NCBI RefSeq assembly: GCF_013122565.1
Contig: NZ_CP053258.1
Length of the DNA: 64,000 nucleotides
From: Escherichia coli
GTDB lineage: Bacteria; Pseudomonadota; Gammaproteobacteria; Enterobacterales; Enterobacteriaceae
Strand: one strand, 5' to 3'
Below, piece by piece: positions 4,690 to 59,246 of this stretch (positions are counted from its first letter, which is position 1; each line of letters begins with the position of its first letter). Position numbers and translations under genes: made by a program. The notes beneath the pieces were generated by a model. That model saw only the letters and a program-made list of their open reading frames with translations, did not search any database and was not told the origin of the DNA.

Positions 4690-5430
4690 ATGTCTATAGA
4701 CTGGAACTGGGGTATTTTTTTACAACAAGCCCCGTTCGGCAACACCACCTATCTTGGTTGGATCTGGAGTGGTTTTCAGGTGACGATCGCTTTGTCGATC
4801 TGCGCCTGGATTATCGCTTTCCTCGTCGGTTCATTTTTCGGCATTTTACGTACCGTTCCAAACCGTTTTCTCTCCGGTCTGGGTACGTTGTATGTCGAAC
4901 TGTTCCGCAACGTGCCGTTGATTGTGCAATTCTTTACCTGGTATCTGGTGATCCCGGAGCTGCTGCCGGAGAAAATCGGCATGTGGTTTAAGGCCGAGCT
5001 GGATCCCAATATTCAGTTTTTCCTTTCATCCATGCTCTGCCTTGGGCTGTTTACCGCCGCCCGTGTTTGCGAACAGGTACGCGCCGCTATTCAGTCGCTG
5101 CCGCGTGGGCAGAAGAATGCCGCGCTGGCGATGGGTCTGACGCTACCGCAGGCTTACCGCTACGTACTGCTGCCTAATGCTTATCGCGTTATCGTCCCGC
5201 CGATGACCTCAGAGATGATGAACCTGGTGAAAAACTCCGCCATCGCCTCGACCATCGGTCTGGTAGATATGGCAGCGCAGGCAGGTAAATTGCTCGACTA
5301 CTCGGCTCACGCTTGGGAGTCGTTTACCGCCATTACGCTGGCGTATGTATTGATTAACGCTTTTATCATGCTGGTGATGACGCTGGTTGAACGTAAAGTT
5401 CGCCTGCCCGGCAACATGGGGGGCAAATAA
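4690..5430 (+). CDS. gltJ: Glutamate/aspartate ABC transporter permease, 246 aa
   Basis: ORF 4690..5430; polytopic membrane protein; position after gltI. Confidence 0.9.
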
Positions 5431-7882: not shown

Positions 7883-7965
7883 CACACGTCATTGATTAAG
7901 ATCACCACGCGTTACCTGGGTGGTCTTAATCTGTTTATCTCTTTTTCTTTCAAGATATAAATGCA

Positions 7966-9636
7966 ATGGATAATGCAGAACTCGCCATTGGTATCGATCT
8001 CGGTACTACCAATAGTTTAATTGCCGTCTGGAAAGACGGTGCCGCGCAATTAATTCCAAATAAGTTCGGTGAATATTTAACACCATCCATAATTAGCATG
8101 GATGAAAATAATCATATTTTAGTCGGAAAACCGGCTGTATCACGGCGTACTTCGCATCCGGATAAAACGGCAGCGTTATTTAAACGTGCAATGGGCAGTA
8201 ATACCAACTGGCGGTTAGGCAGCGACACATTTAACGCGCCAGAACTGTCCTCTTTGGTATTACGCTCATTAAAAGAAGATGCCGAAGAATTTCTGCAACG
8301 TCCAATTAAAGATGTGGTGATCTCCGTTCCGGCTTATTTCAGCGATGAACAACGCAAGCATACCCGTTTAGCAGCGGAGTTAGCCGGGTTAAATGCGGTA
8401 CGCTTAATTAATGAACCCACAGCAGCTGCAATGGCGTATGGCCTGCATACCCAACAAAATACCCGTTCGCTGGTGTTTGATCTCGGTGGCGGCACGTTTG
8501 ACGTTACGGTGCTTGAGTACGCCACGCCGGTGATTGAAGTTCACGCCTCCGCTGGCGACAACTTTCTTGGTGGCGAAGATTTTACCCATATGCTGGTCGA
8601 TGACGTTTTAAAGCGCGCGGATGTCGCCAGGAACACGCTTAACGAGAGTGAACTGGCAGCCTTGTACGCCTGCGTAGAAGCGGCAAAATGTAGTAATCAA
8701 TCGCCAATGCACATTCGCTGGCAGTACCAGGATGAAACGCGGGAGTGCGAATTTTACGAGAACGAACTGGAAGATTTGTGGTTGCCGCTGCTCAATCGCT
8801 TGCGAGTGCCGATTGAACAGGCGTTGCGCGATGCGCGTCTGAAGCCGAGTCAAATCGACAGTCTGGTGCTGGTTGGCGGCGCGTCACAAATGCCGCTGGT
8901 GCAGCGAATCGCCGTGCGTCTGTTTGGCAAATTACCGTATCAAAGTTACGATCCGAGCACCATTGTCGCGCTGGGCGCAGCAATCCAGGCCGCCTGCCGC
9001 TTACGCAGTGAAGATATTGAAGAAGTGATCCTCACTGATATTTGCCCTTACTCGTTGGGTGTTGAAGTTAACCGTCAGGGCGTATCCGGCATTTTCTCGC
9101 CGATTATTGAACGAAACACCACAGTACCGGTGTCGCGTGTAGAAACGTACTCGACCATGCACCCGGAGCAGGATTCAATTACGGTTAACGTCTATCAGGG
9201 AGAAAACCACAAAGTTAAAAATAACATTCTGGTGGAATCCTTCGATGTGCCGTTGAAGAAAACCGGGGCTTATCAGTCGATTGATATTCGTTTTAGTTAT
9301 GATATCAACGGCTTGCTTGAAGTTGACGTACTTCTGGAAGACGGCAGCGTTAAGTCCAGAGTCATTAATCATAGCCCGGTAACATTGAGCGCGCAGCAGA
9401 TCGAAGAGAGTCGGACGCGGTTATCCGCATTGAAAATTTATCCGCGCGATATGCTCATCAATCGCACCTTTAAAGCCAAACTGGAAGAGTTGTGGGCGCG
9501 AGCGCTGGGTGACGAGCGAGAAGAGATTGGCCGGGTGATCACCGATTTTGATGCGGCGTTGCAGTCAAACGATATGGCCCGCGTCGATGAGGTCAGGCGG
9601 CGGGCGAGCGATTATTTAGCCATTGAGATCCCATAA
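7966..9636 (+). CDS. hscC: Hsp70-family chaperone HscC, 556 aa
   Basis: Hsp70 signatures IDLGTTNS and DLGGGTFD in translation; shorter than DnaK; AT-rich codon usage. Confidence 0.9.
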   Translation: MDNAELAIGIDLGTTNSLIAVWKDGAAQLIPNKFGEYLTPSIISMDENNHILVGKPAVSRRTSHPDKTAALFKRAMGSNTNWRLGSDTFNAPELSSLVLRSLKEDAEEFLQRPIKDVVISVPAYFSDEQRKHTRLAAELAGLNAVRLINEPTAAAMAYGLHTQQNTRSLVFDLGGGTFDVTVLEYATPVIEVHASAGDNFLGGEDFTHMLVDDVLKRADVARNTLNESELAALYACVEAAKCSNQSPMHIRWQYQDETRECEFYENELEDLWLPLLNRLRVPIEQALRDARLKPSQIDSLVLVGGASQMPLVQRIAVRLFGKLPYQSYDPSTIVALGAAIQAACRLRSEDIEEVILTDICPYSLGVEVNRQGVSGIFSPIIERNTTVPVSRVETYSTMHPEQDSITVNVYQGENHKVKNNILVESFDVPLKKTGAYQSIDIRFSYDINGLLEVDVLLEDGSVKSRVINHSPVTLSAQQIEESRTRLSALKIYPRDMLINRTFKAKLEELWARALGDEREEIGRVITDFDAALQSNDMARVDEVRRRASDYLAIEIP

Positions 9637-9644
9637 ACACGGCT

Positions 9645-9676
9645 GCCGGATGCGGCGTAAACGCTGCATCCGGCAT
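9645..9676. repeat. REP-like palindromic unit between convergent hscC and djlC
   Basis: GCCGGATGCGGCGTAAACGCTGCATCCGGC with GCCGGATGC/GCATCCGGC arms. Confidence 0.6.
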
Positions 9677-9694
9677 CGGCGCCAAAACACATCG

Positions 9695-11146
9695 TCAACT
9701 AAACAACATCGCGATTTTGCCGAGAGCATAACCTATCACCAGCACCGTTAAACTGATTTTGATAATGCCGGTAATGCTCTGTGGTTTTTCATCCTCATCA
9801 TTTTTTTCTTCATGGTTTTCAGGTGTTGGCTCATCGACATCTTCATCCTCCGGCTCGAGTTTCACTTTCGTCAACAGCATCCGGGTGATGATGGCCTCTA
9901 ATGGATGAGCATCTCCACCTTCCAGCCTTGTATTAAGACGGGCCAGCATCTCTTGTTTCGGAAACGCTTCAAGTACTACCTGTTCCGCTACCCGATACAA
10001 ATCCAGTAACGGTGAATCTTGCTCTGTCTCGCTACCGACTCTCGATTTCCACCACGCCCATGCTTTGCGCTTGAAAAATAACGATTCAATAAACGATTGA
10101 CCTAACGGCGATAATTTTCCGCTATGTAAAATTTCCGCCCATAACAGCCGCGTCCGGGCGCTCTCACCAGGAACATATTTCAACGGTTTACCTTGCACAT
10201 CAACCATGCTCTGCGCTTCGATAACCATCACTAACAGCGCGAAATAATCCGGGCAATGTTGTGCGCTCCACTGCAACAACAAATTATCGGCTTGTGTAGA
10301 TGGGTAACTCTCCCGGTATGCGCAGAGATCGGCAAGCAGGCTTTCCCCCTCGCCGCAGTACAAACGTTGTGCACACTGGTAATACCGGGCATCTTCGCTT
10401 TCTGGTTCTTCCATTTGCCACTGTTGGGCAACAGGAATGAGTTCCGCCATACCTGTTTGCACCGAGCTGTACCAGCGCAACAGTTTGCGATGTAACTTTG
10501 CATCATCAGGAATGAACCACGGACCTTCCATCGCCAAAAACGCAGTGACATAGTCAGGATGGTAACGGCAGCAACGTTCCAGCGCGAAGTAATACTCAAC
10601 AGTCTGGTTCTGCAACGCAACAGGATATTCCAGAAGGCTAAGGAAATCGAAACAATCACCAGCCTGAATGGCCTCAAGAAAAGCCTCCCTTTCTTCCTCA
10701 TCCATTCCTTCGCTGTCATTAAACGAATGCCAGTTCAAACGCTCTGCCAGCAAAGAAGCACAATTTAATGAAAGATATCGCGCTTCTATAGCGATTGCAC
10801 ACAGCGGCCAGCGTAATTGATCGACATCCTCCATGTTCCAGGTATTTAATTGCTGAATAAATTTCTGCCAGGCGGAGGGCTGAAAACGATCACTTTCTGA
10901 ATCCAGTAATGCCCTGAATGCACATAGTATTTCATGTTCAGCGGCAGCATCTTTTTCTTCATCATCTGCTTCCTCGACAGGATTTACCGCCAATCGCAAG
11001 GCCTCTTCATAGGCCTGGCGTAATGCTTTAAACCCCTGCGGATCGGTTTCGGGATGACACAACGGTAAGCGAGCAAGATAAGCCTGGCGGATAATGTCTA
11101 TTTGCGTCGTGCTTTCAATTTCGAGGATTTGCCAACATGTTTTCAT
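9695..11146 (-). CDS. djlC: J-domain co-chaperone DjlC (HscC partner), 483 aa, C-terminal membrane anchor
   Basis: N-terminal J-like domain (…[18 protein letters not shown]…); hydrophobic C-terminal tail; overlaps ybeU stop by 4 nt. Confidence 0.85.
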
Positions 11147-59141: not shown

Positions 59142-59175
59142 GCCGGATGCGGCGTGAACGCCTTATCCGGCCTAC
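59142..59175. repeat. REP palindromic unit in cstA-ybdD spacer
   Basis: GCCGGATGCGGCGTGAACGCCTTATCCGGCCTAC, canonical REP-like sequence. Confidence 0.7.
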
Positions 59176-59201
59176 AAATGCTATCAACGTGCTCGGTCAG
59201 T

Positions 59202-59246
59202 CCCCTCGCCCCACCGGGGAGAGGGTTAGGGTGAGGGGAAACCCTC
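59202..59246. repeat. G/C-rich palindromic repeat adjacent to REP
   Basis: CCCCTCGCCCCACCGGGGAGAGGGTTAGGGTGAGGGGAAACCCTC with internal inverted symmetry. Confidence 0.5.

Follow-up and report, generated by a model that had tools for sequence, protein, structure and literature searches.

How do the transcripts of two genes end when the genes face each other across a gap of 58 bp? This question is raised by hscC and djlC, a convergent pair in the 64,000-nt stretch of Escherichia coli DNA analysed here, which is called the window throughout. The initial annotation of the window pointed to a palindrome resembling a REP (repetitive extragenic palindromic) element as the only spacer element between the two genes and proposed that its hairpin may serve as the transcript end for both. 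We examined the fold of this palindrome, its identity, the RNA ends published for its K-12 counterpart and its variation among Escherichia genomes.

The palindrome between hscC and djlC

The features of the locus are listed here in window coordinates.

7966-9636, plus strand: hscC, 556 aa, Hsp70-family chaperone (open reading frame; RefSeq annotation of the orthologue)
9634-9636, plus strand: stop codon TAA of hscC, separated from the stem by a 7-nt spacer (9637-9643)
9644-9675, no strand assigned: the palindrome orthologous to REP57, a y-type REP that is solitary and tail-less, with a 14-bp stem and a 4-nt loop (inverted-repeat search, folds and identity to K-12)
9645-9653, no strand assigned: left core arm GCCGGATGC, the REP "head" arm (alignments)
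9658-9661, no strand assigned: loop TAAA, the insertion site of IS1397 in E. coli GF131 and 06-00048
9666-9674, no strand assigned: right core arm GCATCCGGC, where a canonical y REP has TTATCCGGC and then CTAC (compared with window 59142-59175 and with loci L005, L006 and L057)
9695-9697, minus strand: stop codon TGA of djlC, separated from the stem by a 19-nt spacer (9676-9694)
9695-11146, minus strand: djlC, 483 aa, J-domain co-chaperone of HscC (open reading frame; RefSeq annotation of the orthologue)

The gap spans 9637-9694 and the hairpin takes up 32 of its 58 bp, in agreement with the initial annotation, which had described the gap as mostly filled. The palindrome was given there as GCCGGATGC, 12 nt and GCATCCGGC at 9645-9676. 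Both core arms are present as described and so are the 12 nt between them (9654-9665), but the right-hand coordinate lies 2 nt too far and the 12-nt spacer itself pairs internally, which makes the palindrome larger than was claimed. The full palindrome is 32 nt long (9644-9675), with arms of 15 nt each at 9644-9658 and 9661-9675 that are 93% complementary. As RNA, the plus strand (hscC sense) forms 14 bp with one G-U pair and a UAAA loop, and the minus strand (djlC sense) forms the same stem with one A.C mismatch.

Folding the entire 58-nt gap gave -32.0 kcal/mol for the plus strand (z -5.4; 0 of 200 shuffles folded equally well) and -28.9 kcal/mol for the minus strand (z -3.0). The 32 nt alone gave -27.8 kcal/mol on the hscC strand and -23.8 kcal/mol on the djlC strand. 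Canonical REP folds reached -21.3 and -20.9 kcal/mol and, therefore, the E. coli hairpin is the more stable form. Hairpins with a stem of at least 11 bp and no more than one mismatch number only 16 in the whole 64-kb window. A chance palindrome was considered and was ruled out by the shuffle statistics and by this rarity.

The lack of a T-tract terminator, also claimed at the outset, was borne out. Our scan called a terminator when at least 5 T occurred in an 8-base window starting 0-2 bases after a stem, and it found no site near the hairpin, where the tails are UCGGCGCC on the plus strand (1 U in the 8 nt after the stem) and GCCGUGUU on the minus strand (3 U). The hairpin is unlikely to act as a canonical intrinsic terminator because it has no U-tract. 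A weak intrinsic terminator that serves djlC through the interrupted U-rich tail GCCGUGUUUAU could still be proposed, since the stem is strong and GC-rich and the minus strand has 3 U in its first 8 nt and 5 U in its first 11 nt. However, this tail was not called by the scan, the hscC side has 1 U in 8, and the djlC-side RNA end mapped in K-12 is located 2 nt after the stem, ahead of the U's. We consider intrinsic termination of djlC at this site to be very improbable.

Identity with REP57 and departures from the canonical y REP

The palindrome is a y-type REP and the orthologue of E. coli REP57. It matches the canonical y REP at 27 of 34 positions, and a perfect 34/34 copy, GCCGGATGCGGCGTGAACGCCTTATCCGGCCTAC, is found in the same window at 59142-59175. 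Across the left arm and the loop, a single loop base differs from the canonical sequence (GTAAAC instead of GTGAAC), and the other differences fall in the right arm and the foot. All 32 nt are identical in K-12 MG1655 at 681684-681715, where Table S16 of Harris et al. 2026 (bioRxiv 10.64898/2026.03.23.713779) lists the element under the name REP57. The REP-like palindrome of the initial annotation is, thus, a real and already named element. The NC_000913.3 annotation carries zero repeat_region features across 62 kb, which makes the lack of a REP feature there uninformative. In Rfam, the only notable matches were sub-threshold hits on both strands to naRNA4, a REP325-derived family (E 0.0014 and 0.0044).

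The window and K-12 share the 32-nt hairpin, the flanking genes, their orientation and the 7-nt distance from the hscC stop codon. They differ in the spacer on the djlC side, where the window has CCAAAAC and K-12 has CAAAAAAC, resulting in a gap of 58 bp compared to 59 bp. The hscC gene of the window is 97.7% identical to that of K-12 and the surrounding DNA is about 97.7% identical as well.

The REP identity is also supported by IS1397, an insertion sequence whose specificity for REPs was shown in published experiments. In two strains, E. coli GF131 (L003, 4361-5800) and 06-00048 (NZ_CP015229.1), a copy of it occupies the hairpin loop and is accompanied by a 3-4-bp duplication. The junctions join GGCATAA to TGAACTG and CAGTTCA to ATAAACGC. 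The insertion at this site is present in 2 of 5426 complete E. coli genomes, and copies of IS1397 elsewhere have a matching REP left arm at their flank.

Other features of REPs are divided. The palindrome is extragenic, lies at gene 3' ends and belongs to a dispersed family with a second copy in the window. The GTAG/CTAC tetranucleotide at the foot of the stem is absent, with ATCG after the right arm and no GTAG before the left arm, and so is the 2-base mismatch that forms a bubble in the stem, as the plus strand is fully paired and the minus strand has the single A.C mismatch. Compared with the canonical y REP/BIME of TnpA_REP (Ton-Hoang et al. 2012), the window copy is alike in its left arm and loop, its extragenic position and its dispersed family, but it has ATCG in place of the GTAG/CTAC foot, and TGCATCC replaces CTTATCC, which leaves no mismatch. 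The foot tetranucleotide and the stem mismatch are both needed for binding and cleavage by TnpA_REP in vitro (Ton-Hoang et al. 2012). The window copy is also solitary, and solitary REPs are only 84 of 584 in K-12 (Ton-Hoang et al. 2012).

REPs have been reported as binding sites for gyrase, IHF and Pol I, and a role at the level of DNA, through one of these proteins or in nucleoid organization, could be imagined for this copy. It is, however, a single REP and has no BIME linker, the part in which an IHF site would lie, and nothing specific to the window sequence supports such a role. A model REP caused no chromosome compaction or REP-REP contacts in the work of Harris et al. 2026. We regard a DNA-level role as extremely improbable.

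The perfect y REP at 59142-59175 has a CTAC foot and sits in a convergent gap. After it, at about 59200-59240, there is a second palindromic repeat, CCCCTCGCCCCACCGGGGAGAGGGTTAGGGTGAGGGG, which resembles the BoxC repeat.

RNA 3' ends at the hairpin

RNA ends have been published for the K-12 counterpart. There, the hairpin at 681684-681715 lies inside an overlap region, 681679-681717, that is entry 48 in a list of 306 bidirectional terminators that lie between convergent genes, with a length of 39 nt, the units hscC:rihA:djlC and the label REP57 (Table S16, Harris et al. 2026). The entry was detected in log phase only, and its flanks contain 0 A and 3 U. The list in Table S16 is taken as the SEnd-seq set of Ju, Li and Liu 2019, based on the table format and on the preprint by Wang et al. 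All expression data discussed here are from K-12, and the ends in the window strain are predictions made by transferring the K-12 coordinates through alignment:

9680-9681, plus strand: 3' end predicted for the hscC-sense RNA, 5-6 nt beyond the stem (from K-12 681679)
9642, minus strand: 3' end predicted for the djlC-sense RNA, 2 nt beyond the stem (from K-12 681717)

The proposal that the hairpin is a shared transcript end is, therefore, supported by entry 48, in which the two RNAs end 2 nt and 5-6 nt after the stem. Mapping of 3' ends had been suggested as the check on this proposal, and the two published data sets give different answers: the list shows ends flanking the hairpin, whereas the Term-seq study of Adams et al. 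2021, which covered three growth conditions, lists neither a 3' end nor a region of Rho termination in the K-12 gap. The silence of the Term-seq data can be explained by the very weak expression of hscC and djlC and by a strong 3' end and a Rho region upstream of hscC and at its start. The HscC and DjlC proteins are below detection in K-12, where the gene pair is very weakly expressed.

The gap between rihA and hscC contains a hairpin of its own, GATTAAGATCACC...GGTGGTCTTAATC followed by TGTTTATCTCTTTTT, at window 7894-7931 on the plus strand with a tail to about 7945. In K-12, the corresponding site at 683425 (minus strand), 32 nt upstream of the hscC start, gave a strong 3' end in Term-seq. 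This end was flagged as Rho-dependent, and a Rho region was also called at 683379, inside hscC (Adams et al. 2021). Transcription into hscC appears to be largely halted ahead of the gene.

Mapping of a 3' end does not by itself prove that polymerase terminates at the hairpin. We consider it likely that the degenerate REP57 orthologue sets the 3' ends of both genes as a two-way hairpin, without acting as a canonical intrinsic terminator, and that it possibly dampens HscC synthesis. The hairpin formed from either strand would set the steady-state 3' ends of both mRNAs a few nucleotides past the stem. Polymerase would most likely continue into the antisense of the opposing gene and stop there, and 3'-to-5' exonucleases would trim the RNA back to the hairpin, possibly with help from polymerase stalling positioned by the hairpin. 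A two-way exonuclease barrier is, thus, our preferred explanation, with hairpin-assisted stopping as a possible contribution. From the sequence, the fold, the REP identity and the K-12 3' ends, each established here or in published work, we infer the exonuclease-barrier step, the actual site of polymerase stopping and the effect on translation.

Ends of this kind are known from Rho-dependent transcripts, which end right after stable stem-loops without U-tracts following trimming by PNPase and RNase II, and annotated REPs account for 24% of such ends (Dar and Sorek 2018). The hscC/djlC hairpin is like these ends in having a stable U-less stem-loop at the 3' end and then C-rich, G-poor sequence; it differs from them in that no Rho region was called at the K-12 site in the data of Adams et al. 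2021. On both strands, C is abundant and G scarce in the first 100-150 nt downstream, with C/G ratios of 1.59 and 1.9 against background 90th, 95th and 99th percentiles of 1.46, 1.63 and 2.00, a composition typical of any antisense-of-coding RNA. REP57 is found only in Table 16 of the supplement of Harris et al. and is, therefore, absent from the list of REPs in the Rho-binding screen there. Given the low expression of the locus, none of these observations is decisive for or against Rho. In the same study, terminal REPs were not generally associated with longer mRNA half-lives (Harris et al. 2026). The group that reported the SEnd-seq list describes its bidirectional terminators as Rho-independent (Wang et al. 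preprint), which counts against a model of Rho-dependent termination and trimming.

Another possible explanation is that the site is a bidirectional terminator that works through head-on collisions of RNA polymerases, where the nascent hairpin fixes the site and trailing polymerases dislodge the stalled complexes. The K-12 element is in the published list of convergent bidirectional terminators, and such sites are unlike intrinsic terminators, Rho-independent and in need of the stem-loop to position the collisions (Wang et al. preprint). REP57 resembles the overlapping bidirectional terminators in its convergent gap, its 14-bp stem and 4-nt loop, and the 39-nt transcript overlap of the K-12 orthologue. 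It has no A-tract or U-tract, unlike many entries, and was seen in log phase only. The efficiency of these terminators rises with polymerase traffic (Wang et al. preprint), however, and hscC and djlC rank among the genes with the lowest expression, so collisions should be rare; the restriction of entry 48 to log phase also speaks against this mechanism. We find it unlikely that collisions account for the ends at this site.

The exonuclease barrier that we prefer could be accompanied by an effect on translation. According to the RepRanger paper, Liang, Rudd and Deutscher 2015 reported that REPs less than 16 nt from a stop codon hinder translation. By that account, hscC, with a spacing of 7 nt, falls within this range and djlC, with 19 nt, falls outside it. 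The stem may hinder translation termination on hscC and cause a low output of HscC, and djlC would be exempt. Dampening of hscC translation by the hairpin is possible because the stem begins 7 nt after the stop codon. Any role of the hairpin would be quantitatively small and hard to observe, since both genes are very weakly expressed and there is a strong 3' end just upstream of hscC.

Variation of the locus in Escherichia

Searching the genome contigs for HscC returned four Escherichia loci only, one of which was truncated. The other loci were almost all distant homologues (28-53% identity), plus one near-identical fragment of 737 bp. Escherichia sp. E1V33 has the E. coli form with one tail-less REP. 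Escherichia whittamii (L006), Escherichia sp. MOD1-EC7003 (L005) and a divergent metagenome contig with 88% hscC identity (L057) have the canonical form, in which a y REP with CTAC and the mismatch lies 7 nt after the hscC stop codon and one to three inverted REPs come next. The number of REPs in the gap is two in E. whittamii and in L057 and four in MOD1-EC7003. In E. whittamii, the gap is 86 bp long and the second REP abuts the djlC stop codon. In MOD1-EC7003, it is 186 bp long (5172-5357) and a tandem repeat, (CATCCGG) x5-6, abuts the djlC stop. The 7-nt spacing between the hscC stop codon and the stem was also found in L004, L005, L006 and L057. All non-artefactual Escherichia sequences that were aligned retain the GCCGGATGC arm, with no changes other than single-base variants.

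Two metagenome contigs were set aside. In L056, the loop is the junction between the hscC 3' end with its REP left arm and a different REP cluster, the one downstream of mdoH/opgH; the neighboring open reading frame is the 3' end of mdoH/opgH and the coverage is 1.16x, and a chimeric assembly is most likely. L046 (2.7x coverage) has a 21-nt deletion of the left arm that occurs in no complete E. coli genome and is either rare or artefactual.

The E. coli form of the hairpin is probably derived, since the most divergent lineage has the canonical form on what is an unrooted tree. It could have originated by a deletion that joined the left half of the first REP to the head arm of the distal REP, or by palindrome correction. 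The deletion is suggested by GCATCCGGCATC, which is common to the E. coli hairpin and the distal REP of MOD1-EC7003.

Within E. coli, the hairpin is essentially fixed. The locus is present in 4370 genomes, and in 4292 of these the match extends over at least 80% of an 81-nt K-12 query that spans the gap. The variants seen in the hairpin are single transitions (G9645A, G9657A, C9662T and C9671T). No two of them make up a compensatory pair (0 pairs changed on both sides). The data thus do not demonstrate selection on RNA pairing, and covariation is silent either way.

These data also bear on whether the hairpin has any selected function. It could be a neutral relic of REP/BIME turnover, with the RNA ends as a by-product of a stable hairpin. 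The gap is a REP hotspot whose content differs among lineages (1, 2 or 4 REPs), no covariation was seen, and the stem is about as polymorphic as the flanking spacer. Insertion of an IS into the loop is tolerated. A REP is also found in about 30% of E. coli convergent gaps anyway (207 of 704; Harris et al. 2026), and the same authors place about 60% of REPs between convergent genes and 78 REPs within the listed terminators. Against a relic stand the retention of the hairpin in essentially all E. coli genomes with the locus, the 7-nt spacing from the hscC stop codon that was kept across about 12% hscC nucleotide divergence, and the greater stability of the E. coli form compared to the canonical REP (-27.8 compared to -21.3 kcal/mol). 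A neutral origin of the ends is doubtful in our view, but it deserves serious consideration.

A stronger claim would be that the E. coli form is a "perfected" derivative of an ancestral y REP/BIME, kept as a domesticated two-way 3'-end element and as a brake on hscC translation. The change by central deletion or palindrome correction would have removed both transposase determinants and raised the stability by about 6 kcal/mol. We think this quite unlikely. Several other REP-labelled bidirectional terminators in Table S16 for K-12, such as REP99 and REP81, are also short, fully paired palindromes. By this comparison, convergent gaps may harbor a recurring type of "perfected" REP derivative.

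The literature already contains this element under its name and class, together with the role proposed for it, and it is an ordinary catalogued repeat. Its significance beyond annotation is small, as a role of REPs in convergent gaps as two-way transcript ends or stabilizers has already been put forward in print and the site itself is listed. What distinguishes this copy is that it is a REP without both of the features required by the transposase, yet it is fixed across E. coli. The related Escherichia species provide natural variants with 1, 2 and 4 REPs at the same spot, which could be used to test the number and perfection of REPs against 3'-end formation and HscC output.

The gene pair itself varies within the species. 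About 1050 of the 5426 complete E. coli genomes gave no megablast match to the hscC/djlC 3' region. The annotation of E. coli O157:H7 F8092B (L062) marks djlC as a pseudogene that contains an internal stop.
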